Assembly (NCBI RefSeq): GCF_054482595.1
Contig: NZ_CM137008.1
Length of the DNA: 64,000 bases
Strand: one strand, 5' to 3'
The notes beneath the pieces were generated by a model, which ran no database searches, was not told where the DNA came from, and saw nothing but the letters and a program-made list of their open reading frames with translations. Both the position numbers and the translations under genes were made by a program. Shown here piece by piece: positions 1 to 48,544 of this stretch. How positions within the stretch are numbered: position 1 is the first letter of the stretch; the number at the start of each line of letters is the position of its first letter.

Positions 1-390
1 TTCGTCTGACCACTTAACGCCACGCTCTGTACCGAATGCCTGTATAAGCTCTAATAGCTCCGCAAATTCGCTTACACGCATCCTGCTGGTTGACTGGCCT
101 ATTACCACAAAGCCATTCCCGGCAAGGTTAGGAACAACGTCCTGCTGCTTTAATGCTGCGGTAAACACACACTTCCAGCTTTCTGCATCCAGCCAGCGAC
201 CATGCCATTCAACCTGACGAGAGACGTCACCAAGGCAAGCCCAAAGCTTTCGATTCTGGTCTAAGCTGCGGTTGCGTTCCTGAATGGTTACTACGATTGG
301 TTTGGTTGGGTCTGGAAGAATTTGCTGTACCGCGTGAATAGCGTTTTGCTGATGTGCTGGAGATCGAATTTCAAAGGTTAGTTTTTTCAT
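1..390 (-). CDS. ninB: NinB (Orf family recombination protein), N-terminal 130 codons; C-terminus lies beyond window start
   Basis: Reverse-strand translation from ATG at 390 reads MKKLTFEIRSPAHQQNAIHAVQQILPDPTK... and reaches window edge as ...ELLELIQAFGTERGVKWSDE, matching lambda NinB as recalled. Confidence 0.8.
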   Translation of the reverse strand, partial: MKKLTFEIRSPAHQQNAIHAVQQILPDPTKPIVVTIQERNRSLDQNRKLWACLGDVSRQVEWHGRWLDAESWKCVFTAALKQQDVVPNLAGNGFVVIGQSTSRMRVSEFAELLELIQAFGTERGVKWSDE

Positions 391-405
391 GACTTCCCTC
401 TCCCC

Positions 406-440
406 CAAATAAAAAGGCCTGCGATTACCAGCAGGCCTGT
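406..440 (-). terminator. Rho-independent terminator between ren and ninB (lambda tR2 position)
   Basis: 8-bp inverted repeat AGGCCTGC/GCAGGCCT followed on minus strand by UUUUUAUUU. Confidence 0.6.
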
Positions 441-463
441 TATTAGCTCAGTAATATAGATGG

Positions 464-754
464 TCATCTTTTAACTCCATATACCGCCAATACCCGTTTC
501 ATCGCGGCACTCTGGCGACACTCCTTAAAAATCAGGTTCGTGCTCATCTTTCCTTCCCGTTCTTCCTTGGTAGCAAACCGGTAATACACCGTTCGCCAGA
601 CCTTACCTTCGATAACCAGAAGACCTGCCCGTGCCATTTTAGCCGCGGCCTGATTTATGCTGGTTACTGTTGCGCCTGTTAGCGCGGCAACGTCCGGCGC
701 ACAGAAGCTATTATGCGTCCCCAGGTAATGAATAATTGCCTCTTTGCCCGTCAT
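464..754 (-). CDS. ren: Ren protein (96 aa)
   Basis: ORF translation matches lambda Ren as recalled; overlaps P stop as in lambda. Confidence 0.9.
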   Translation of the reverse strand: MTGKEAIIHYLGTHNSFCAPDVAALTGATVTSINQAAAKMARAGLLVIEGKVWRTVYYRFATKEEREGKMSTNLIFKECRQSAAMKRVLAVYGVKR

Positions 755-1452
755 ACACTTGCTCCTTTCAGTCCGAACTTAGCTTTGATTTCTGCGATCT
801 TCGCCAGAGCCTGTGCACGATTTAGAGGTCTACCGCCCATGACAGGAAGTTGTTTTACTGGTTCAGGGATCGCCTCACCACGGTTAATTCTCGCAGTCAT
901 ATGGACAAGCTCATCTGCGGCCTTACGGCGTAATTCCGCATCAGTAAGCGCATTGGCCCGCATGTTCTGATACAGGTTGGTAATCAGCCAGTAGTGCGCG
1001 TTTGATTTCCACGGATAAGACTCCGCATCCGGATACAGGCCTCGCTTCCGGCAATACTCGTAAACCATATCAACCAGCTCGCTGACGTTTGGCAGTCCGG
1101 CGGTAACGGATGCTTCTTCCCGGCACCATGCAACAAACTGCCCGGGTGATGGCAGAAATGGTCGATTCTGCCGACGGGCTACGCGCATTCCTGCGTTAAC
1201 CTGTTCCATTGTGGTGATCCCGTTTTCCCGGAAAGCCAGAACCCACTGGCGGCGGATTTCGTTCAGTTCGTTCTGGTCACGGTTAGCCAGGCTCGCCGGG
1301 AAAGTTGCCAGTAACTGGCTGAACACACCGTTGATGATCTGCGCTACCTGCTGTACCTGCGGCTTTTCGTCGTACTGTTCCGGCATGTTGTTGGCGATCC
1401 GACGCATCTGCTCACGGTCAAAGTTAACCATCTGTGCGGCGATGTTTTTCAT
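751..1452 (-). CDS. P: Replication protein P (DnaB helicase loader), 233 aa
   Basis: Full-length translation matches lambda P as recalled; overlaps O stop. Confidence 0.95.
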   Translation of the reverse strand: MKNIAAQMVNFDREQMRRIANNMPEQYDEKPQVQQVAQIINGVFSQLLATFPASLANRDQNELNEIRRQWVLAFRENGITTMEQVNAGMRVARRQNRPFLPSPGQFVAWCREEASVTAGLPNVSELVDMVYEYCRKRGLYPDAESYPWKSNAHYWLITNLYQNMRANALTDAELRRKAADELVHMTARINRGEAIPEPVKQLPVMGGRPLNRAQALAKIAEIKAKFGLKGASV

Positions 1453-2348
1453 AGATCCACCCCGTAAATCCAGTCTGTGTTTGTCAGGTCGAGTTTTGGT
1501 TTACTGGCTGTCACGACTGCCTGTTGCTTGTTACGGTTGATTTCGAGCTGGGTCCACTTGTCGCGGAGTTTGGCCGGACTCAGCACGTTACCGGACCAGA
1601 AGTTGTCCTGGCAGGCCCAGCGGAAAAGCACACACATATCGCGGTGGTTACGTCCGTCACGTTCACGCATCAGGCGGATATCGTTAGCCCACCCAGCAAA
1701 ATTCGGTTTTCTGGCTGATGGCGCGATGGTCTTCACCATGTCAAACATCCACTCTGCGGCGGTCAGGTCTTCTGCTGTTCCCCACTTGCTGCCGCTCTGA
1801 ATTGCAGCATCCGGTTTAACCACAGAAAGATCGTTTTCTGGCTGGTCAGAGGATTTGCCAGAATTCTCGGACGAATAATCTTTTCTTTTTTCTTTTGTAA
1901 TAGTGTCTTTTGTGTCCCCCTGTTTTGAGGGATAGCAATCCCCCAATTTGAGGGATGTTTTATCCCTCGTTTTAGGGGATTTTCCCTCGTTTTGAGGGAT
2001 ACACCATTCTGAGATGTTTTTATTTGGTCCAAACATGCCGCCTTGCTGCTTGATAATATTCATTCTGACGAGTTCTAACTTGGCTTCATTGCACCGTTTG
2101 ACAGGTAACTTTGTAATCTCGCTAAGTTGAGAATCGGTGATTCTGTCCATTGGTTTATTCCACCCATAGGTTTTACGCAGAATGGCAAGCAGCACTTTAA
2201 ACTGTCGCTTGGTCAGATCTGCGCCCGAATAAGCCTCAAGCAGCATATTTGATAGTCTGGCGTAACCATCATCGAGATCTGCCACATTACGCTCCTGTCC
2301 GGCAAAGTTACCTCTGCCGAAGTTGAGTATTTTTGCTGTATTTGTCAT
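1449..2348 (-). CDS. O: Replication initiator O, 299 aa
   Basis: Translation MTNTAKILNFGRGNFAGQERNV... near-identical to lambda O as recalled; contains ori iterons. Confidence 0.95.
   Translation of the reverse strand: MTNTAKILNFGRGNFAGQERNVADLDDGYARLSNMLLEAYSGADLTKRQFKVLLAILRKTYGWNKPMDRITDSQLSEITKLPVKRCNEAKLELVRMNIIKQQGGMFGPNKNISEWCIPQNEGKSPKTRDKTSLKLGDCYPSKQGDTKDTITKEKRKDYSSENSGKSSDQPENDLSVVKPDAAIQSGSKWGTAEDLTAAEWMFDMVKTIAPSARKPNFAGWANDIRLMRERDGRNHRDMCVLFRWACQDNFWSGNVLSPAKLRDKWTQLEINRNKQQAVVTASKPKLDLTNTDWIYGVDL
1870..2001. repeat. ori-lambda: four tandem iterons plus adjacent AT-rich region inside O
   Basis: Four ~19-bp repeats (TCCCTC-N-GAGGGA cores) at ~1912-2001, with an A/T-rich tract at 1870-1910. 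Confidence 0.85.
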
Positions 2349-2359
2349 AATGACTCCTG

Positions 2360-2434
2360 TGGATTGATCCAGTAATTCCCTCAGAATTGCATATCAATTT
2401 GCTTAGAGTCCCCGGCGGCCACCGGGGATTTTTT
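2360..2434 (+). ncRNA. oop: oop-like antisense RNA with its terminator (to), overlapping cII 3' end
   Basis: Plus-strand hairpin CCCCGG-CGGCCA-CCGGGG then T6 at 2410-2434, opposite to cII/O; position and sequence pattern resemble lambda oop as recalled; 5' end approximate. Confidence 0.6.
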
Positions 2435-2677
2435 CTTTGTGATTCCATCAAGCGCATACTTAAAAGCCCTGCTAATTGGACTGATGTCTGATGCCATTCC
2501 GAAAGCACACAAGACCGAAGCAATAAACCGCCAGTCCGTTCTGCTTATCTTCGATTCATGACAGCCAATCATCTTTGCCAGACCGCGCTGGGTAATAGTT
2601 GACAGATTGATAAGTAAATCTGTTTCTGCGCGATCAACGTCACGCTGTGATAGTTTGCTGTAACTTGTTCTTTCCAT
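2381..2677 (-). CDS. cII: CII-like transcriptional activator (98 aa)
   Basis: C-terminus ...KKKSPVAAGDSKQIDMQF resembles lambda CII ...KKRPAATERSEQIQMEF; HTH-like centre; lambda-order position between cro and O. Confidence 0.85.
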   Translation of the reverse strand: MERTSYSKLSQRDVDRAETDLLINLSTITQRGLAKMIGCHESKISRTDWRFIASVLCAFGMASDISPISRAFKYALDGITKKKSPVAAGDSKQIDMQF

Positions 2678-2762
2678 TTCTTAAGATTTCCAATAGTGAA
2701 TAGTTAGTTGAAAGGTATGCGTGGAAACGCATATGGCCTTAGTTGGTCAGATATCTTGGGAC

Positions 2763-2809
2763 TCGCTTTTCAGCGACGTAGGACGAATGTCCGTTGTTAC
2801 AAAGAGCGG
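2763..2809 (-). promoter_or_regulatory. nutR-like site (boxA CGCTCTTTGTAACAAC, boxB UCGCU-GAAA-AGCGA) on pR transcript
   Basis: Minus-strand boxA-like element followed by 5-bp stem/GAAA loop hairpin; near-identical architecture to the nutL candidate at 5263-5309. Confidence 0.5.
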
Positions 2810-2815
2810 GGTTAC

Positions 2816-3043
2816 TTATGCTGCCAGAAGGTTCTTTTTGCTTATTTCAAGCAATTCGCTTGCTTGATATTTGCCACCAGAAATCTCTTCGATTTTTGAG
2901 GCGTATTTCGTTTTCCCAAAAAACTCAGTCTTAGGGAGGAAGCCGTTTTTGAGCCACTTATAGACAGCCCTTTCGCTAACTCCACAAGCCTTCGCAACTT
3001 CAGGGATGCCGACACCTTTAATCGGCTCATCAAGATTTTGCAT
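2816..3043 (-). CDS. cro: Cro-like HTH repressor (75 aa)
   Basis: Small ORF divergent from cI with HTH motif (VAKACGVSERAVYKWLKNG); not lambda Cro sequence. Confidence 0.8.
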   Translation of the reverse strand: MQNLDEPIKGVGIPEVAKACGVSERAVYKWLKNGFLPKTEFFGKTKYASKIEEISGGKYQASELLEISKKNLLAA

Positions 3044-3122
3044 AGGAATATCCCTTTTTCGTACTTTTAGTACGCATTATGGTTGAACTGAAAGTTTTTG
3101 CAAGTGCTTTAGTATCGTACTC
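3044..3122. promoter_or_regulatory. oR-type operator/promoter region (divergent pR/pRM) between cro and cI
   Basis: 79-bp divergent intergenic region with palindromes GTACTTTTAGTAC (3061-3073) and AGTATCGTACT (3110-3120) and motif TTATGGTT also present near the pL region. Confidence 0.6.
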
Positions 3123-3830
3123 ATGGTTCAGAATGAAAAAGTGCGCAAAGAATTCGCCCAGCGGCTAGCGCAAGCCTGTAAAGAAGCTGGTCTTGATGAA
3201 CATGGTAGGGGTATGGCCATAGCCCGTGCCCTTTCTCTTTCGTCCAAAGGCGTTAGCAAATGGTTTAATGCTGAGTCTTTACCGCGTCAGGAAAAAATGA
3301 ATGCGCTTGCGAAATTTCTAAACGTTGATGTTGTTTGGCTTCAGCACGGCACTTCGTTAAATGGAGCGAATGATGAAGATACTCTTTCATTTGTTGGCAA
3401 ATTAAAAAAAGGGTTAGTGCGCGTGGTTGGTGAGGCAATTCTTGGTGTTGATGGTGCCATCGAGATGACCGAAGAGCGCGATGGGTGGCTCAAGATTTAT
3501 AGTGATGATCCAGATGCCTTTGGTCTTCGTGTGAAAGGAGACAGCATGTGGCCCAGAATAAAATCAGGAGAATATGTACTCATTGAGCCTAACACCAAAG
3601 TATTCCCGGGGGATGAGGTGTTTGTCAGAACCGTTGAAGGACACAACATGATCAAGATTCTTGGCTATGACAGAGATGGAGAATACCAATTTACAAGCAT
3701 CAACCAGGACCACAGGCCAATAACGTTACCTTATCATCAAGTAGCAAAGGTGGAGTATGTGGCTGGTATTCTGAAGCAATCTCGTCATCTGGATGACATC
3801 GAGGCAAGGGAGTGGCTGAAAAGTTTGTGA
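3123..3830 (+). CDS. cI: CI-type prophage repressor (N-terminal HTH + C-terminal S24 LexA-like autopeptidase), 235 aa
   Basis: HTH at N-terminus; GDSM serine motif and downstream lysine (MIKILG) typical of S24 family; heterologous to lambda cI. Confidence 0.9.
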   Translation: MVQNEKVRKEFAQRLAQACKEAGLDEHGRGMAIARALSLSSKGVSKWFNAESLPRQEKMNALAKFLNVDVVWLQHGTSLNGANDEDTLSFVGKLKKGLVRVVGEAILGVDGAIEMTEERDGWLKIYSDDPDAFGLRVKGDSMWPRIKSGEYVLIEPNTKVFPGDEVFVRTVEGHNMIKILGYDRDGEYQFTSINQDHRPITLPYHQVAKVEYVAGILKQSRHLDDIEAREWLKSL

Positions 3831-3953: not shown

Positions 3954-4274
3954 ATGGAACCGGTCAAAATTAAACCATCTGTGGATTATATTGAAACCTA
4001 TGCGGACTTCGCTAGTTTTGCTCCACTACCGGGAGCGGAAAAAAATCTCATTTGTATACATTTTATCGCAAACAAGTCAATACCTGCGGTACTATCCCAA
4101 AATGATATACCAGATCAACCAGGTAGAGCGAATATGCAGATAGGCTCTGTAAATGAACTCAATCAGCAATGCACTGTGATAATGCCAATGGCACAACTAA
4201 AGGCTCTTCAGGAGAATATAGTTCTTCTTTTCGAACAATTAGAGGCACAAAACTCTAATGGAGCGAAGTCGTAA
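3954..4274 (+). CDS. Hypothetical protein ORF-A (~106 aa), first gene of cassette in rexA position
   Basis: ORF with GAGG Shine-Dalgarno 5 nt before ATG 3954 (alternative starts 3939/3942); stop overlaps ORF-B start (TAATG); no family recognised. Confidence 0.6.
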   Translation: MEPVKIKPSVDYIETYADFASFAPLPGAEKNLICIHFIANKSIPAVLSQNDIPDQPGRANMQIGSVNELNQQCTVIMPMAQLKALQENIVLLFEQLEAQNSNGAKS

Positions 4275-4957
4275 TGCAACAACCGGAAGAAGTAGGTGAT
4301 TTAACTATTACTTACAAAACATCAAGTATTGTTAAACCACTGCAAGTTTCCCTGAATAACGTTAATACTCGCGATTTCATGATGTTCATGGAAACAGCAA
4401 AAGGTAATCTGTTTTCTACGCCTATTTCCTCTTATTCACCAAAAAACATGGTGGATGATGCGACCAATTCCCAGCTAACTGCTACAATCGTAGATAAAGG
4501 AGGGGTTGCCGATTGTAAAGGACAATCTAATGTTATCCCACCGTACGAGGAAACTCCTATACAGGGAACCGCAATGTCCGATTTGAGCAGAAACGAAATA
4601 CAGGCACTTCTGAAGGCAAATAAAGCTGAAGTGGATGCAGTGGCCTCAAAAATGCAGGCTGATATGGCCAAATGGCGTGAACTAATGGCTTCAGATATAA
4701 AGGAGATGAAGCATTTAGTTGTTACTCAGCACGAACAAATCAACAGTCGTCTGGACATACAATCGAGTAGAATTGAGAGTGCCCTTGACTCCCAATCAAA
4801 AAAGATCGATGCAGCTCTTTCTGTTCAAGAGGCAAAGTTAGAAGGTAAGCTTAGTGATGTTAAGCTTGATATAATCAAATGGGCCCTTGGCTTGCCAGCA
4901 TTAGCATTTGCTGTATATAAAATCTACGGATTGCTCTCTGGAGTCTCAACCCCCTAA
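4274..4957 (+). CDS. Hypothetical tail-anchored membrane protein ORF-B (227 aa), in rexB position
   Basis: Translationally coupled to ORF-A; heptad-like/charged segment ~100-200; single C-terminal hydrophobic helix IIKWALGLPALAFAVYKIYGLL; no family recognised. Confidence 0.65.
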   Translation: MQQPEEVGDLTITYKTSSIVKPLQVSLNNVNTRDFMMFMETAKGNLFSTPISSYSPKNMVDDATNSQLTATIVDKGGVADCKGQSNVIPPYEETPIQGTAMSDLSRNEIQALLKANKAEVDAVASKMQADMAKWRELMASDIKEMKHLVVTQHEQINSRLDIQSSRIESALDSQSKKIDAALSVQEAKLEGKLSDVKLDIIKWALGLPALAFAVYKIYGLLSGVSTP

Positions 4958-5696: not shown

Positions 5697-6278
5697 TTAC
5701 TTGTTTTTGCCATGCTTATCCTGAGCGATAAGTTCATCCATAAGACTGTCTTTCTTCCCAGCAAACCTAATGTAGCACTCATTTCTATAGCGTTCCGGGA
5801 TAACAAAACGGTCGATTTCAGGATATCCAGTAGCAGAAGGTACCCGAATAAGAAGCCCTTTTTCGAGCAATGAGATTGCTTCAGGGCTTCCCTTTTCTGT
5901 CTTTAGCTGGTTATTAGCGGCTACAGCGAATGCCAAATACGCTCTTTCTCCAAGAGTTAACGAATCAAACAAATCTTGCACGTATTTCTCTTCTTTAGAT
6001 TTGCGCTTCTGAGCAGCGAATATCTCAATTCTTTCAGTCACAGCGTGATAAGCGGAATTAACAACGCCGTTAAGCACATAGCTAACGCAAAACAACAGGA
6101 TGTAATACATCCAGTAATGAGGAAGGATTTCTGGATTATGCAGGTTTATCCATTCTTTTACGCTTACAGGCATAACAATAATCAATATGATCAGGATGAT
6201 TAGCATATGAATCAACTGTTTAAGTGTCATTCCTTGCAGGAAAAAATGCATTAGTTCCTGCCACCATGAGTTGTTCAT
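5697..6278 (-). CDS. sieB: Superinfection exclusion protein B (193 aa), membrane protein
   Basis: Translation MNNSWWQELMHFFLQGMTLKQLIHMLIILIILIIVMPV... matches lambda SieB as recalled. Confidence 0.9.
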   Translation of the reverse strand: MNNSWWQELMHFFLQGMTLKQLIHMLIILIILIIVMPVSVKEWINLHNPEILPHYWMYYILLFCVSYVLNGVVNSAYHAVTERIEIFAAQKRKSKEEKYVQDLFDSLTLGERAYLAFAVAANNQLKTEKGSPEAISLLEKGLLIRVPSATGYPEIDRFVIPERYRNECYIRFAGKKDSLMDELIAQDKHGKNK

Positions 6279-6907: not shown

Positions 6908-6979
6908 GCGCGGCGTTACCGCATACCAATAACGCTTCACTCGAGGCGTTTTTCGTTATGTATAAATAAGGAGCACACC

Positions 6980-7144
6980 ATGCAATATGCCATTGCAGGG
7001 TGGCCTGTTGCTGGCTGCCCTTCCGAATCTTTACTTGAACGAATCACCCGTAAATTACGTGACGGATGGAAACGCCTTATCGACATACTTAATCAGCCAG
7101 GAGTCCCAAAAAATGGATCAAACACTTATGGCTATCCAGACTAA
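6980..7144 (+). CDS. cIII: CIII (FtsH inhibitor, 54 aa)
   Basis: Translation [54 protein letters not shown] matches lambda CIII; below ORF-track size cutoff. Confidence 0.9.
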   Translation: MQYAIAGWPVAGCPSESLLERITRKLRDGWKRLIDILNQPGVPKNGSNTYGYPD

Positions 7145-12710: not shown

Positions 12711-12929
12711 ATGTACTTGACACTTCAGGAGTGGAACGCACGCCAGCGACGCCCAAGAAGCCTTGAAACAGTTCGTCGATGGGTACGCGAGTGCAGGATA
12801 TTCCCTCCTCCGGTTAAGGATGGAAGAGAGTATCTGTTCCACGAATCAGCGGTAAAGGTTGACTTAAATCGACCAGTAACAGGTAGCCTTTTGAAGAGGA
12901 TCAGAAATGGGAAGAAGGCGAAGTCATGA
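12711..12929 (+). CDS. xis: Excisionase Xis (72 aa)
   Basis: Translation MYLTLQEWNARQRRPRSLETVRRWVRECRIFPPPVKDGREYLFHESAVKVDLNRPVTGSLLKRIRNGKKAKS matches lambda Xis. Confidence 0.95.
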   Translation: MYLTLQEWNARQRRPRSLETVRRWVRECRIFPPPVKDGREYLFHESAVKVDLNRPVTGSLLKRIRNGKKAKS

Positions 12930-13980
12930 GCGCCGGGATTTACCCCCTAACCTTTATATAAGAAACAATGGATATTACTGCTACAGGGACCCAAGGACGG
13001 GTAAAGAGTTTGGATTAGGCCGAGACAGGAGGATAGCAATCACTGAAGCAATACAGGCCAATATTGAGTTACTCTCAGACAGCGGACGCAAATCACTGAT
13101 AGACAGAATTAAAGGCGGTGACGCAATCACTCTTCATGTGTGGCTTGACCGATATGAAACAATCCTCACCGAAAGGGGGATCAGGCCGAAAACTCTACTC
13201 GACTACGCCAGCAAAATCAGGGCAATCCGAAGAAAATTGCCGGACAAACCGCTCACTGACATATCAACGAAAGAAGTGGCAGCAATGCTAAACACCTACG
13301 TAGCAGAAGGTAAAGCAGCTTCCGCAAAATTAATCAGGTCAACCCTTGTTGACGTTTTTCGTGAAGCAATAGCCGAGGGGCATGTGGCAACGAATCCGGT
13401 AACAGCAACCCGTACAGCAAAGTCAGAAGTAAGGCGCTCAAGGCTGACAGCTAATGAGTATGTCGAGATTTACCATGCAGCCGAACCTCTCCCTATCTGG
13501 CTAAGGCTGGCGATGGATTTGGCCGTCGTTACAGGGCAGAGAGTCGGCGATTTGTGCAGAATGAAATGGTCAGACATAAACGACAACCATCTTCACATTA
13601 AACAGAGTAAAACAGGGGCTAAACTCGCCATTCCGCTAACGCTAACGATTGACGCGCTCAATATCTCATTGGCTGATACACTACAGAAATGCAGGGAGGC
13701 CAGCAGCAGTGAAACTATAATCGCATCAAAGCATCACGATCCGCTTTCCCCGAAAACAGTATCAAAGTATTTTACAAAGGCGAGAAATGCATCTGGCCTC
13801 TCATTTGATGGAAACCCGCCAACATTCCATGAACTGCGTAGCCTGTCAGCGAGGCTATACCGGAACCAGATTGGCGATAAGTTTGCTCAACGTCTTCTCG
13901 GGCATAAATCAGATTCAATGGCGGCGCGGTATAGGGACAGCCGTGGACGGGAATGGGACAAAATTGAAATCGACAAATGA
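12907..13980 (+). CDS. int: Tyrosine integrase Int (357 aa), lambda-family
   Basis: N-terminus MGRRRSHERRDLPPNLYIRNNGYYCYRDPRTGKEFGLGRDRRIAITEAIQANIEL and C-terminal RSLSARLY...HLLGHKSD...REWDKIEI as in lambda Int; central domain divergent. Confidence 0.95.
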   Translation: MGRRRSHERRDLPPNLYIRNNGYYCYRDPRTGKEFGLGRDRRIAITEAIQANIELLSDSGRKSLIDRIKGGDAITLHVWLDRYETILTERGIRPKTLLDYASKIRAIRRKLPDKPLTDISTKEVAAMLNTYVAEGKAASAKLIRSTLVDVFREAIAEGHVATNPVTATRTAKSEVRRSRLTANEYVEIYHAAEPLPIWLRLAMDLAVVTGQRVGDLCRMKWSDINDNHLHIKQSKTGAKLAIPLTLTIDALNISLADTLQKCREASSSETIIASKHHDPLSPKTVSKYFTKARNASGLSFDGNPPTFHELRSLSARLYRNQIGDKFAQRLLGHKSDSMAARYRDSRGREWDKIEIDK

Positions 13981-14074
13981 TTTTATTTTGACTAATAATG
14001 ACCTACTTACATTAATTTACTGATAATTAAAGAGATTTTAAATATACAACTTATTCACCTTAAGTGCACCGACC
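13981..14074. other. attL-type prophage/host junction region (P' arm with arm-type Int sites; core not resolved)
   Basis: TTTTGACTAATAATGACC resembles lambda P' arm-type sites as recalled; lies between int stop and host torS start. Confidence 0.4.
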
Positions 14075-16819
14075 GTGAATTTAACCCTGACCCGAAGACT
14101 CTGGATGGGCTTTGCCCTGATGGCACTGTTAACCCTGACCAGTACCCTGGTGGGATGGTACAACCTGCGCTTTATCAGCCAGGTGGAAAAAGACAATACT
14201 CAGGCATTGATTCCTACCATGAATATGGCGCGCCAGTTGAGCGAAGCCAGCGCCTGGGAACTTTTCGCCGCGCAGAACCTGACCAGTGCCGATAACGAAA
14301 AGATGTGGCAGGCGCAGGGGCGAATGCTCACCGCACAAAGCCTGAAGATTAATGCGTTGCTGCAAGCGTTACGGGAACAAGGTTTTGATACCACCGCTAT
14401 TGAACAACAGGAGCAGGAGATCTCCCGTTCGTTACGTCAGCAAGGGGAACTGGTGGGGCAGCGTTTGCAACTGCGCCAGCAACAACAGCGACTCAGTCAG
14501 CAGATAGTCGCTGCCGCCGATGAGATCGCACGCCTGGCGCAAGGTCAGGCGAATAATGCGACAACTTCCGCTGGAGCGACCCAGGCCGGGATTTACGATT
14601 TGATCGAACAAGATCAGCGTCAGGCTGCTGAAAGTGCACTCGACCGGCTGATTGATATCGATCTTGAGTATGTTAACCAGATGAATGAACTGCGCCTTAG
14701 CGCCCTGCGGGTGCAGCAAATGGTGATGAATCTGGGGCTGGAACAGATCCAGAAAAATGCGCCAACGCTGGAAAGGCAGCTCAATAATGCGGTGAAAATT
14801 CTGCAACGTCGGCAAATACGCATTGAAGATCCGGGAGTTCGTGCGCAGGTCGCAACAACGTTAACTACCGTTAGCCAATATAGCGATCTGTTGGCGCTGT
14901 TCCAGCAGGACAGTGAAATCAGCAATCACCTGCAAACTCTCGCCCAAAATAATATCGCCCAGTTCGCGCAGTTTAGTAGCGAAGTCAGTCAGCTGGTCGA
15001 CACCATTGAGCTGCGCAATCAGCATGGACTGGCGCATCTGGAAAAAGCCAGTGCACGCGGGCAATACAGCCTGTTATTGCTGGGGATGGTTTCACTTTGC
15101 GCACTGATTCTGATCCTCTGGCGCGTGGTTTATCGCTCAGTCACGCGTCCACTTGCCGAACAAACGCAGGCGCTGCAACGGCTGCTGGACGGTGATATTG
15201 ACTCCCCTTTTCCGGAAACCGCTGGCGTACGGGAGCTGGATACCATCGGGCGGCTGATGGATGCGTTTCGCAGCAGTGTTCATGCACTGAATCGCCACCG
15301 CGAACAGCTGGCGGCGCAGGTCAAAGCACGTACAGCTGAATTGCAGGAACTGGTGATAGAACACCGACAGGCACGGGCGGAAGCAGAAAAAGCCAGCCAG
15401 GCAAAATCGGCGTTTCTGGCGGCGATGAGCCATGAGATCCGCACACCGCTGTACGGTATTCTCGGCACCGCACAGCTACTGGCAGATAACCCCACACTTA
15501 ACGCCCAGCGTGATGATTTGCGGGCAATTACTGACTCTGGTGAATCGTTGCTGACCATCCTCAACGATATTCTCGATTATTCGGCTATCGAAGCAGGTGG
15601 CAAGAATGTTTCGGTCAGCGATGAGCCCTTTGAACCGCGCCCGCTGCTGGAAAGTACCCTGCAATTAATGAGCGGACGGGTGAAAGGTCGCCCGATTCGC
15701 CTGGCAACGGCAATTGCCGATGATGTACCGAGCGCGTTAATGGGCGATCCGCGGCGTATTCGTCAGGTCATTACCAACCTGTTGAGCAACGCCCTGCGTT
15801 TTACTGACGAAGGGCAGATCGTTTTACGTAGCCGTACTGATGGTGAGCAATGGCTGGTCGAAGTGGAAGACAGCGGCTGCGGTATTGATCCCGCGAAACT
15901 GGCAGAAATCTTCCAGCCATTTATTCAGGTAAGTGGCAAACGCGGCGGCACCGGGCTGGGGCTGACTATCAGTAGCCGTCTGGCCCAGGCGATGGGCGGC
16001 GAACTGAGCGCCACCAGCACGCTGGAGGTTGGAAGCTGTTTTTGTTTACGCTTGCCGTTACGTGTTGCCACAGCACCCGCGCCAAAAACAGCCAATCAGG
16101 CGGTGCGTCTGGACGGTTTACGTTTGCTGTTAATTGAAGATAACCCGCTAACCCAGCGAATTACCGTTGAGATGCTGAACACCAGTGGTGCGCAGGTTGT
16201 TGCTATTGGCAATGCCGCGCAGGCTTTAGAGACACTGCAAAATAGCGAACCGTTTGCTGCCGCACTGGTGGATTTTGATCTGCCGGATATCGACGGCATT
16301 ACCCTTGCCCGGCAACTGGCACAGCAATATCCGTCGCTGGTTTTGATTGGCTTTAGCGCTCATGTCATTGACGAAACGCTGCGCCAGCGTACCAGTTCAC
16401 TATTTCGCGGGATTATCCCTAAACCGGTGCCGCGTGAAGTGCTCGGTCAGTTACTGGCGCACTATCTCCACCTGCAAGTCAATAACGATCTACCACTTGA
16501 TGTATCGCAACTCAATGAAGATGCTCAATTAATGGGGACGGAGAAGATCCACGAATGGCTGGCATTATTTAAACAACATGCCCTGCCGCTTCTCGATGAA
16601 ATCGACATTGCCCGCGCCAGCCAGGACAGCGAGAAAATAAAGCGTGCCGCGCATCAGCTAAAAAGCAGTTGCTCGAGTCTGGGAATGCGTAGCGCCAGTC
16701 AGCTATGCGCACAACTGGAGCAGCAGCCATTATCTGCCCCCCTTCCACACGAAGAAATTACACGCAGTGTTGCCGCTCTGGAAGCATGGTTGAATAAGAA
16801 AGACCTGAACGCGATTTGA
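14075..16819 (+). CDS. torS: TMAO sensor hybrid histidine kinase TorS (914 aa), GTG start
   Basis: Full-length match to E. coli TorS as recalled (HAMP, HisKA/HATPase, receiver, HPt domains). Confidence 0.95.
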
Positions 16820-18406: not shown

Positions 18407-18579
18407 GGTCAGTGCGTATTTGCAGCGCGACGTTATCAAAGGTGATCATCGTCGATTTACAAAAAATACACTTAGCGCCCAAAGGGTTTCGCTCCGTCAC
18501 ATCGAATGCCGATGTGCGGTACTGTGAACCATGACAACATGGACAGCGGAAATGGAGATGTTGAGTAATAACGGCAACC

Positions 18580-18792
18580 TTAGAGCGTAACAACGTTCGC
18601 TGCCGCGGGGCCACGTTGCCCCTGCTCAATAGAAAATTCAACTTTCTGATTTTCGTTCAGCGTGCGGAATTCATTGCTCTGGATGGCGGTGAAATGGACG
18701 AAAACGTCTTTGCTGCCATCATCAGGAGTGATAAAGCCAAAACCTTTATCTGCGTTAAACCATTTTACTAAACCAGTCATTTTATTAGACAT
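18580..18792 (-). CDS. cspG: Cold shock protein CspG (70 aa)
   Basis: CSD protein [23 protein letters not shown]...; conserved neighbourhood. Confidence 0.9.
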
Positions 18793-19077
18793 ATTTTACT
18801 TCCTTCATTTTGGGCCTTTCGGCAAACAGGGCTTTAATACAGAAACTACTTAGTGTTCAGGAGAGAGACTCAAAAGAAGGGGATAATGCCTGATAATGAG
18901 AACTGCTTTAGTAAACTACTTTGTATGCTGTCTGTCTTTCCAACCGACGCAGCTATTAACGCATGATAATTGAGATTAAGCAAATTTTATTTTAGCCGTC
19001 CGGCGGTCTTAAATATCGCTGGCTTTATTTTATTAACCCCGTATAGTGCAGCGCAGTATTTTCAGTAAGGAATTTGT

Positions 19078-37773: not shown

Positions 37774-37861
37774 GGAAGTGTGGCCGAGCGGTTGAAGGCA
37801 CCGGTCTTGAAAACCGGCGACCCGAAAGGGTTCCAGAGTTCGAATCTCTGCGCTTCCGCCA
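37774..37861 (+). tRNA. serT: tRNA-Ser (anticodon UGA), 88 nt with CCA end
   Basis: GGAAGTGTGGCCGAGCGGTTGAAGGCACCGGTCTTGAAAACCGG...CGCTTCCGCCA; long variable arm; matches E. coli serT. Confidence 0.95.
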
Positions 37862-38067
37862 GATAAGATAAGGGGTTAGCTAAATGCTAACCCCTTTTTC
37901 TTTTGCCTGTCGAAATTCTCAGGGCGTTATATTTGCTTAATGACCTGATAATCCGCTGTTAAACCTGTTCCAGATCAAATGCGTAAAGATGGGTAAAACT
38001 TCTGGGTGCCCTTACGCATTATCATTATGCTGCTTAATTAATTACATCTGTCATAGAGAGTGACTCA

Positions 38068-38727
38068 ATGGATCGTATTGTTAGTTCTTCACATGACCGT
38101 ACATCACTGCTTAGCACCCATAAGGTGCTGCGTAATACCTATTTTCTGCTGAGCCTGACGCTGGCCTTTTCGGCGATTACCGCAACTGCCAGTACGGTGC
38201 TGATGCTGCCATCTCCGGGTCTGATTCTGACGCTGGTGGGTATGTATGGTTTGATGTTCCTGACCTATAAAACGGCGAATAAGCCGACCGGGATTATCTC
38301 CGCATTCGCCTTTACCGGTTTTCTGGGTTATATCCTCGGACCAATTCTGAACACCTATCTGTCTGCCGGAATGGGTGACGTAATCGCTATGGCACTGGGC
38401 GGAACGGCGTTAGTGTTCTTCTGCTGCTCTGCATATGTGCTGACCACCCGCAAAGATATGTCGTTCCTCGGCGGTATGCTGATGGCGGGTATTGTGGTGG
38501 TGCTGATTGGTATGGTTGCTAATATCTTCCTGCAACTGCCTGCTCTGCATCTGGCGATCAGCGCGGTCTTCATTTTGATCTCCTCTGGCGCTATTTTGTT
38601 TGAAACCAGCAACATCATTCATGGCGGTGAAACGAACTATATTCGTGCCACGGTTAGCCTGTATGTTTCGCTGTACAACATCTTCGTCAGCCTGCTGAGC
38701 ATTCTGGGCTTCGCCAGCCGCGATTAA
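38068..38727 (+). CDS. yccA: YccA (Bax inhibitor-1 family membrane protein), 219 aa
   Basis: Seven hydrophobic segments; conserved position next to serT. Confidence 0.9.
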
Positions 38728-38817
38728 TCTCACCCGCTAACACTGTCATAGCCTCGCTTTATGCGGGGCTTTGTTTTTTGTTACACTGCCGGCAGTCTGA
38801 TTAAGGTAGTAATAATT

Positions 38818-39147
38818 ATGCTGATCTTCGAAGGTAAAGAGATAGAAACGGATACCGAAGGCTATCTCAAAGAAAGCAGCCAGTGGAGTGAGCCGCTGGC
38901 AGTGGTGATTGCAGAGAACGAAGGGATTTCGCTGTCGCCAGAACACTGGGAAGTGGTGCGTTTTGTGCGTGATTTCTATCTGGAATTCAATACTTCTCCG
39001 GCGATTCGTATGCTGGTAAAAGCGATGGCGAATAAATTTGGCGAAGAAAAAGGTAACAGCCGCTATTTATACCGACTGTTTCCGAAAGGTCCGGCTAAGC
39101 AAGCCACCAAAATTGCTGGCCTGCCAAAACCGGTAAAATGTATTTAA
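38818..39147 (+). CDS. tusE: Sulfurtransferase TusE (109 aa)
   Basis: Start at [17 protein letters not shown]; DsrC-like C-terminus ...PKPVKCI. Confidence 0.9.
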
Positions 39148-39422
39148 CGGATACGAAAATCGGTTAATTCACCCGAGGGATGATGCGGCTCGCTGAGCAC
39201 CCGTTCTACACGCGCAGAACGCGGGCCGCCACTCTTTAACCACTGCATTAATTTTTCTACCTGCCCTTCTTCACCGCAAGCAACCACTTCCACGCTGCCA
39301 TCGTCAAGATTTTTGGCGTACCCGGTTAAACCCAGTCTTTTCGCTTCGTACTGTGTGGTGTAGCGAAATCCTACGCCCTGAACTCGCCCGTAAACCCAGG
39401 CAATTATGCAGACTTTCGACAT
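39144..39422 (-). CDS. yccX: Acylphosphatase YccX (92 aa)
   Basis: Start at [20 protein letters not shown] (acylphosphatase signature). Confidence 0.85.
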
Positions 39423-39516
39423 TGCTGCTCTCCTTATCCTTAATGGACGCGTTGCAAATCCATGGAAAACTCCGGACAATGACGCCCATTTCTTTGCATC
39501 GACAGAAAAGTAAATT

Positions 39517-40707
39517 ATGAGTGTACGTTTAGTGTTAGCCAAAGGGCGCGAAAAATCATTACTTCGTCGCCATCCGTGGGTCTTTTCCGGGGCCGTTGCC
39601 CGCATGGAAGGTAAAGCCAGCCTCGGTGAAACCATCGATATTGTTGATCATCAGGGAAAATGGTTAGCACGCGGCGCTTATTCGCCAGCTTCGCAAATCC
39701 GGGCGCGCGTCTGGACGTTTGACCCGTCTGAGTCTATCGACATTGCTTTTTTTTCCCGCCGTTTGCAACAAGCACAAAAATGGCGTGACTGGCTGGCGCA
39801 AAAAGATGGCCTCGACAGCTATCGTTTAATCGCCGGTGAATCTGATGGCCTGCCGGGTATTACTATCGATCGTTTCGGTAATTTTCTGGTGCTGCAACTG
39901 CTGAGTGCTGGTGCAGAATATCAGCGCGCGGCATTAATTAGTGCCCTGCAAACGCTGTACCCGGAATGTGCGATTTACGATCGCAGCGACGTCGCGGTAC
40001 GTAAAAAAGAAGGAATGGAGCTGACCCAAGGCCCCGTCACCGGCGAGTTGCCGCCTGCCCTGCTGCCGATTGAAGAACATGGCATGAAGCTGCTGGTGGA
40101 CATACAGCACGGACACAAAACGGGCTACTACCTGGACCAGCGTGACAGCCGCCTGGCTACCCGCCGCTACGTTGAAAATAAACGCGTACTGAACTGTTTC
40201 TCCTATACCGGTGGTTTCGCCGTATCGGCACTGATGGGCGGTTGCAACCAGGTTGTCAGTGTTGATACCTCCCAGGAAGCCCTGGATATTGCACGGCAGA
40301 ACGTTGAGCTGAACAAACTGGATCTGAGCAAGGCTGAGTTTGTCCGTGATGATGTCTTTAAATTGCTGCGTACTTATCGCGATCGCGGTGAAAAATTTGA
40401 CGTTATCGTGATGGACCCGCCGAAGTTTGTTGAGAATAAAAGCCAGTTGATGGGCGCGTGTCGTGGCTATAAAGACATCAACATGCTGGCGATTCAGTTG
40501 CTGAATGAAGGCGGTATTCTCCTGACTTTCTCCTGTTCCGGTCTGATGACCAGCGATTTATTTCAGAAAATCATCGCGGATGCCGCAATTGATGCCGGCC
40601 GTGATGTACAATTTATAGAGCAGTTCCGTCAGGCAGCCGATCATCCGGTGATCGCTACCTATCCGGAAGGGCTATATCTGAAAGGGTTTGCCTGTCGCGT
40701 CATGTAA
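39517..40707 (+). CDS. rlmI: 23S rRNA m5C1962 methyltransferase RlmI (396 aa)
   Basis: PUA + SAM-MTase; conserved neighbourhood. Confidence 0.9.
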
Positions 40708-48524: not shown

Positions 48525-48544
48525 TACTGTACATCCATACAGTA
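48525..48544. promoter_or_regulatory. LexA SOS box upstream of sulA
   Basis: TACTGTACATCCATACAGTA, canonical CTGT-N8-ACAG palindrome. Confidence 0.85.

Follow-up and report, generated by a model that had tools for sequence, protein, structure and literature searches.

A predicted pO-oop-tO unit with the H-19B oop allele between cII and O of a lambdoid prophage

The oop locus of lambdoid phages has been known since the 1970s. In lambda, the OOP RNA and the pR transcript pair, the duplex is cleaved by RNase III, cII expression is lowered and the phage is biased towards lytic growth (Krinke & Wulff 1987, 1990; Krinke et al. 1991; cited in PMC12197685, PMC5488031, PMC2327240 and PMC5869508). When expressed from its promoter pO, OOP abolishes the CII activities of lambda (PMC5869508), and when supplied in trans it turns the plaques of lambda imm21 clear, acting across five mismatches (PMC3349717). 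The RNase III cuts in the lambda duplex fall outside the cII coding region (PMC5869508), so that secondary decay is needed, and OOP makes little difference to the elimination of CII after SOS induction of lambda (PMC2327240). For these two reasons, the physiological weight of OOP control may be modest.

Among lambdoid phages, a 33-bp block spanning the −10 element and the 5' end of oop is conserved (PMC3349717), and the locus has been aligned across 23 of these phages, including 21, H-19B, 933W, Stx1, Stx2, HK97, HK022 and P22 (PMC3349717, Figs S1, S2 and S5). OOP-like sequences in the cII–O regions of Stx phages are mentioned in reviews (PMC5488031, PMC12197685), which state only that similar sequences exist; in the searchable literature, no transcripts of the H-19B/Stx-type allele are reported. 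The P22 oop transcript was seen by RNA-seq (PMC13397905), and an OOP-BTP1 transcript was found by the same technique in a lysogen (PMC7067206). Both the locus and the allele described below are already known, and they carry little weight as a discovery, conservation of oop in 21, H-19B, 933W, the Stx1/Stx2 phages, HK97, HK022 and P22 having been published.

The oop unit and its setting in the window

The window is the whole stretch of DNA that was analysed, with a length of 64,000 nucleotides. When positions 1–3830 are read on the minus strand, they form the early-right region of a lambdoid prophage, with O and P replication genes of the lambda/H-19B type and a cII gene of the H-19B/21/933W type. 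Based on the list of open reading frames and Pfam, this region comprises ren (464–754, minus), P (751–1452, minus), a cro-like HTH gene (2816–3043, minus) and a cI-like repressor gene with HTH and S24 domains (3123–3830, plus), along with the two genes that flank the locus. The first of these, cII (2381–2677, minus; 98 aa; Pfam Phage_CII, E = 6.7e-31), is the predicted antisense target. It is followed directly downstream on the same mRNA by the lambda-type replication gene O (1449–2348, minus; Pfam Phage_rep_O, E = 5.5e-36), which is 98.2% identical to lambda O at the DNA level. The intergenic mRNA segment between them (2349–2380, minus), as read from the sequence, contains the Shine-Dalgarno sequence of O, AGGAG (2354–2358, minus). 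Over 49.9 kb, the window is colinear at 98.9% with the E. coli EC5502 chromosome, in which the prophage end has an integrase adjoining torS; RefSeq names cII a 'CII family transcriptional regulator' in the colinear genome.

Several further elements were recorded along the window. Four iterons of the ori-lambda type (…tgagggat / tccctc… repeats) lie within O at about 1915–2000, and these draw spurious snoRNA matches in a permissive Rfam scan. Elements resembling nutR were read by eye between cro and cII on the minus strand, at 2716–2735 and 2795–2806, and comprise a boxB-like hairpin (ATGCG-TTTCCA-CGCAT) and a boxA-like CGCTCTTTGTAA. Directly downstream of cI, in the position of lambda rexA/rexB, two plus-strand genes (3954–4271 and 4274–4957) gave no Pfam family above cut-off, with a weak coiled-coil CCDC90-like match, and no PADLOC match; one possibility is an exclusion or defence pair, of unknown type, expressed during lysogeny. 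Next comes sieB (5697–6278, minus). The Rfam family Lambda_thermo, the cIII thermoregulator, matched at 6967–7025 (plus) with 88.5 bits, in agreement with the annotation of a cIII gene in the colinear genome. The region at about 12907–14075 contains the integrase and excisionase of the prophage, with host torS immediately after them, which sets the prophage–host junction at about 13980–14075. The remaining window is chromosome (torS, yccM, cspG/H, gfc, etk, appCBA, hya, serT, yccA … sulA, ompA), including the host cspA-type thermoregulator 5'UTR of cspG (18526–18948, minus) and tRNA-Ser(UGA) (37774–37861, plus).

The oop unit itself (2323–2438, plus) sits between cII and O, on the strand opposite to both. 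Gapless alignment to lambda oop (lambda 38675–38599, within the stretch 37900–39700 used for the alignment) placed a predicted OOP antisense RNA of 77 nt at 2359–2435 (plus). This RNA is convergent with cII, overlaps its 3' end by 55 nt (2381–2435) and, at its own 5' end (2359), directly adjoins the Shine-Dalgarno sequence of O. Being encoded in cis, this RNA is complementary to cII by necessity. By analogy, we infer both ends, 2359 and 2435, from those of lambda oop, and the 5' end could lie up to 3 nt further downstream, since P22 oop RNA-seq reads start at the G of GAUUGAUCC (PMC13397905); from the fourth base on, the P22 read sequence equals that of one variant (L086) in the set described below. 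The original prediction had proposed an RNA of about 75 nt at 2360–2434, which lies within a base or two of the present span, as well as a plus-strand hairpin with T-run at 2410–2434, convergent with cII. The latter was recovered as the G+C core and T-run of a structure that extends over 2405–2434.

The promoter pO (2323–2351, plus) was located by a consensus scan and by identity to lambda. It consists of a −35 element TTGAGT (2323–2328), a 17-bp spacer and an extended −10 element TGtCATAAT (2343–2351), whose hexamer CATAAT (2346–2351) is preceded by TG. This sigma-70-like promoter lies 54 bp upstream of the terminator stem. The CAT of this hexamer (2346–2348) is the complement of the O start codon ATG. 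As the consensus scan did not rise above chance (two promoter-like sites in the region, with 2.5 expected), the case for the promoter stands on its match to lambda pO, which is complete over 2323–2358, including the discriminator (36/36). The reverse complement of 2341–2373, ACTGGATCAATCCACAGGAGTCATTATGACAAA, fits the published lambdoid 33-mer (PMC3349717) and is the sole match in the window, in which a conserved 27-mer also occurs once, against zero occurrences expected. Overlapping oop +1 is a LexA-box-like motif, TCCTGTGGATTGATCCAGTA (2354–2373, assigned to neither strand; CTG-N10-CAG core at 2356–2371), which matches the 20-mer LexA consensus at 14 of 20 positions, with six mismatches by manual count. 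The lambda equivalent reads CTGTTGATAGATCCAG, and a LexA site within lambda oop-pO is cited in PMC5869508. A canonical LexA box was absent from pO, and a search of the window allowing up to three mismatches gave only the canonical box upstream of sulA (48525–48544).

The 77-mer was predicted to fold with −31.2 kcal/mol (z = −4.5), and none of 200 shuffled sequences folded as well. In the predicted fold, the 77–78 nt from 2359 form two hairpins. The 5' stem-loop I (2359–2402, plus), on which the MFE and centroid structures agree, has an outer helix (2359–2368 with 2393–2402) and an inner helix (2372–2378 with 2384–2390). The second hairpin is the intrinsic terminator tO (2405–2438, plus), with a stem of 11 pairs, six of them G–C (2405–2415 with 2422–2432), a 6-nt loop (2416–2421) and a run of six Ts (2429–2434) followed by CTTT. 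The terminator scan reported tO on the plus strand only; on the minus strand, an A-run precedes the palindrome and no T-run follows it.

Compared with lambda, the sequence is identical throughout pO (100%), and identity falls to 73% from oop +1 on, the base that matches the 5' G of lambda's OOP. Over the body, 56 of the 77 bases are identical (72.7%) without gaps, and a search of a 2.3-Gb phage database with just the 84-bp body returned lambda at E = 9e-6, so that the likeness to lambda oop put forward in the original prediction was borne out by alignment. DNA similarity to lambda ends at 2442 (blastn, window 1334–2442 aligned), 7 nt past the oop 3' end, and the 24–27% identity beyond this point is that of random sequence. 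The CII proteins of the window and lambda are homologous but distant (32% amino-acid identity, E = 9e-9), and the cII DNA is unrelated outside the overlap; cII is thus heterologous to that of lambda, as had been proposed.

The features shared with lambda oop are the position between cII and O on the opposite strand, the length of 77 nt, the 55-nt overlap with cII, the identical pO, the 5' hairpin followed by an intrinsic terminator, the 5' end adjoining the Shine-Dalgarno sequence of O, and the CTG-N10-CAG LexA-like motif at +1 (values for the lambda geometry, including the 55-nt overlap, are from PMC3349717). The window differs from lambda at 21 of the 77 bases, in stem I, which pairs 4 nt out of register with that of lambda and includes an inner helix that lambda lacks, in two compensatory terminator pairs, and in a terminator loop of 6 nt compared with 4 nt. 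The claim that oop had been retained across the mosaic junction accordingly stood for the promoter, the two-hairpin architecture and the terminator, but not for an intact body, which is 73% identical to that of lambda and represents the H-19B allele.

Allele identity and annotation

The 84-bp oop body is 100% identical to that of phage H-19B (AF034975) and of 71 other phage records, and these 72 records are mostly Stx1a and some Stx2a converting phages. Identity is 92.9% to HK022, HK97, Stx2 II and mEp phages, and 73–77% to lambda-class phages. A 401-bp segment covering cII, oop and O' was present in 1827 of 5426 complete E. coli genomes (about a third), with up to five copies per genome. H-19B is colinear with the window from P through cII (95.7%), whereas its cro gene, OR and the N-terminal part of its cI do not match, and the immunity region (2826–3376 compared) is itself a mosaic. 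Instead, window 2420–3101 was found to be 95.6% identical to cII, cro and OR of the phi24B/933W type, up to the end of the phi24B stretch compared.

The alleles of the HK97 group (HK97, HK022, Stx2 II and mEp) have the same stem I and the same cII type as the window. The two versions differ in the terminator arm, AAAATCCTCGG...CCGGGGATTTT vs AGAGTCCCCGG...CCGGGGATTTT, and in the resulting CII tail, …SPAATEDFK… vs …SPVAAGDSK…; most of the HK97-group alleles adjoin non-lambda replication modules. The oop of P22 and BTP1, which is antisense to c1, has in common with that of the window the −10 element and the initial ~15 nt of the transcript, as well as its position and its layout of two hairpins, whereas its length is ~63–67 nt, and its body and terminator are unrelated in sequence. 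Phage phi24B (HM208303; 280–400 of the stretch compared) has the same cII body along with a lambda/434-like terminator, but its oop 5' half is diverged, with its own TATAAT as −10 element and without the lambdoid 33-bp block. A '21-type' label for the window allele was considered and dropped, as lambda imm21 has a lambda-like stem I and a different terminator loop, and the window allele is that of H-19B.

No RNA feature is annotated at the oop site, either in RefSeq or in the H-19B record. In Rfam, a scan of the region up to E = 10 and of the whole window at gathering thresholds returned no oop family. A His_leader match at 20 bits was set aside as a generic terminator match, and the snoRNA matches fall on the ori iterons. 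As a control, lambda's own oop was found to match no Rfam family either, so that the missing match reflects a gap in the library, Rfam 15 having no oop model, and is uninformative on the locus. The oop gene is unannotated because of this missing model, an annotation gap that affects about a third of complete E. coli genomes and that a covariance model built from the variant set gathered here would close.

Variant alleles, terminator covariation and mosaic joints

The variant set was obtained by scanning IMG/VR with a 27-nt pattern spanning the −10 element and the oop 5' end, which yielded 120 loci with 31 distinct oop sequences; since the pattern is derived from oop, the set says nothing on the universality of oop. 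The 31 sequences sort into one class of lambda type, one of H-19B/HK97 type and two P22-type classes of short RNAs (67 nt), with numerous chimeras besides. Folding of six classes differing in sequence gave, in each case, a hairpin at the 5' end and a terminator hairpin followed by a U-run (z = −3.4 to −5.4).

When the 23 distinct long-form variants were aligned, 100% of the stem cells of the terminator helix were paired, compared with 27–63% in a control in which the partner was slid by 1–3 columns. Two pairs were changed on both sides, from C–G to U–A and from G–C to C–G, in eight sequences each, and three pairs were changed on one side. Both compensatory changes are non-synonymous in cII (R…R in lambda vs D…S in the window, that is, D/R and S/R). 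The RNA helix has thus been preserved at the expense of the C-terminal tail of CII, whose residues changed, and this pattern speaks for selection acting on the helix and not on the protein. Pairwise covariation was confined to the terminator, stem I being class-specific. A single stem I common to all long-form variants was rejected, with 72–82% of cells paired in either register and zero compensatory pairs. The register is i+j = 45 in the H-19B/HK97 class and i+j = 49 in lambda, corresponding to the 4-nt shift, and the stem I of each class is a helix of its own on the same conserved 5' 14 nt.

The surroundings of the unit are mosaic. Within the 120 IMG/VR loci, at least four unrelated types of replication module, at least three of them non-lambda, are joined upstream to the block formed by the −10 element and the oop 5' end, and each type is combined with two or more of the oop bodies of lambda, H-19B/HK97 and P22. 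The same loci include three stem-I classes, six terminator classes and about five cII-body types, with a hairpin and T-run in every combination; the presence of an oop-like unit in every combination observed is to be read in the light of the oop-derived pattern by which the loci were gathered. In this set, the window oop allele is accompanied only by the cII type of the window, and this cII type also occurs with lambda-like oop bodies. Four oop bodies were found with it, namely the H-19B and HK97 ones, that of lambda, and a lambda body whose terminator loop is 21/434-like; lambda imm21 has one of the lambda-like combinations. In HK97, VT2-Sakai and Stx2 phage 86, which carry the cII of the window and other replication genes, similarity is lost at 2341, inside pO between the −35 and −10 elements. 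The same kind of junction was described by Hayes et al. in a lambda/P22 hybrid (PMC3349717). With joints at pO and on the tO side, the oop unit thus sits between two recurrent recombination joints.

Proposed function and alternative readings

The segment 2323–2438 (plus) is very probably the pO-oop-tO unit of a lambdoid prophage, whose OOP RNA would pair with the cII–O mRNA, lead to its cleavage by RNase III and bias the phage towards lytic growth. Transcription, the exact RNA ends, RNase III dependence and phenotype are points that we infer by analogy with lambda. Firing from pO would be leftward on the phage map, which corresponds to the plus strand of the window, and transcription would stop at tO to give the 77-nt RNA, folded into stem-loop I at its 5' end and the terminator hairpin. 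This RNA would match the pR transcript without a mismatch, the complementarity beginning just upstream of the O Shine-Dalgarno sequence, crossing the cII–O spacer and reaching into the last 55 nt of cII. Subsequently, the double-stranded RNA would be cut by RNase III, the cII mRNA would decay, and the lower amount of CII would shift the decision towards lytic growth.

The segment might instead have been conserved for other reasons, such as coding for the C-terminal tail of CII, supplying O with its Shine-Dalgarno sequence and start codon, and providing homology as a 'linker' for module exchange, with an RNA that has little or no regulatory effect on cII. We regard this as unlikely, although it would be in line with the 33-bp conserved block including the ATG and the Shine-Dalgarno sequence of O, with the reassortment of replication modules, oop bodies and cII bodies at junctions inside or at the edge of the oop unit, and with the minor role of OOP in the loss of CII after SOS induction of lambda (PMC2327240). 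It is at variance with the compensatory changes of the terminator stem, which alter amino acids, and with a pO identical to a promoter shown to work in lambda. Further against it, OOP expressed from pO abolishes CII activities (PMC5869508), and OOP in trans clears the plaques of lambda imm21 (PMC3349717).

Less probable still is that pO-oop mainly serves to control replication at the neighbouring lambda-type ori, acting in cis with the iterons of O, in the manner of the oop+ ori-lambda+ 'inhibition phenotype'. The window does encode a lambda-type O with four iterons about 360–440 bp from pO, and Hayes et al. found both oop transcription and the iterons to be required for the replicative inhibition of rep-lambda phages (PMC3349717). 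However, the same pO −10/oop 5' block is joined to at least three non-lambda replication modules, so that its retention is independent of ori-lambda. The replication and cII roles of oop are not mutually exclusive, and for oop transcription a further role linked to ori has been put forward (PMC3349717).

The reading in which the hairpin and T-run arose by chance within cII coding DNA, with no oop gene present, can be dismissed: short G+C palindromes do arise by chance, and 1.5 terminator-like sites are expected in the 1.5-kb region scanned, but this reading is effectively refuted by the ungapped homology to lambda oop together with an identical, correctly spaced promoter, by a fold that no shuffled sequence equalled, by a stem maintained across 23 variants, by the single occurrence of the 27-mer against zero expected, and by the matches in the phage database.

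Building on the preferred reading, in which OOP acts as an antisense regulator of cII, the oop body alleles (lambda/21-, H-19B/HK97-, phi24B- and P22-types) might be specificity determinants for cross-talk in trans among lambdoid phages, either co-resident or superinfecting, a suggestion that we make tentatively and hold to be rather doubtful. In such cross-talk, OOP from a resident prophage may lower the CII of an incoming phage only if the oop/cII-tail allele is common to both. The predicted duplex energies fit such allele specificity, with −155 kcal/mol for the cognate duplex, −129 to −134 for H-19B vs HK97, and −75 to −83 for lambda vs H-19B, in which the longest perfect run is 11 nt.

For lambdoid phages, the oop unit marks a recurrent recombination joint in their mosaics, with junctions inside pO and at the T-run of tO, and this joint is useful for delimiting the immunity and replication modules of Stx prophages. 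If allele-specific cross-talk does occur, frequent recombination at the oop borders would reshuffle which phages bias each other's choice between lysis and lysogeny.
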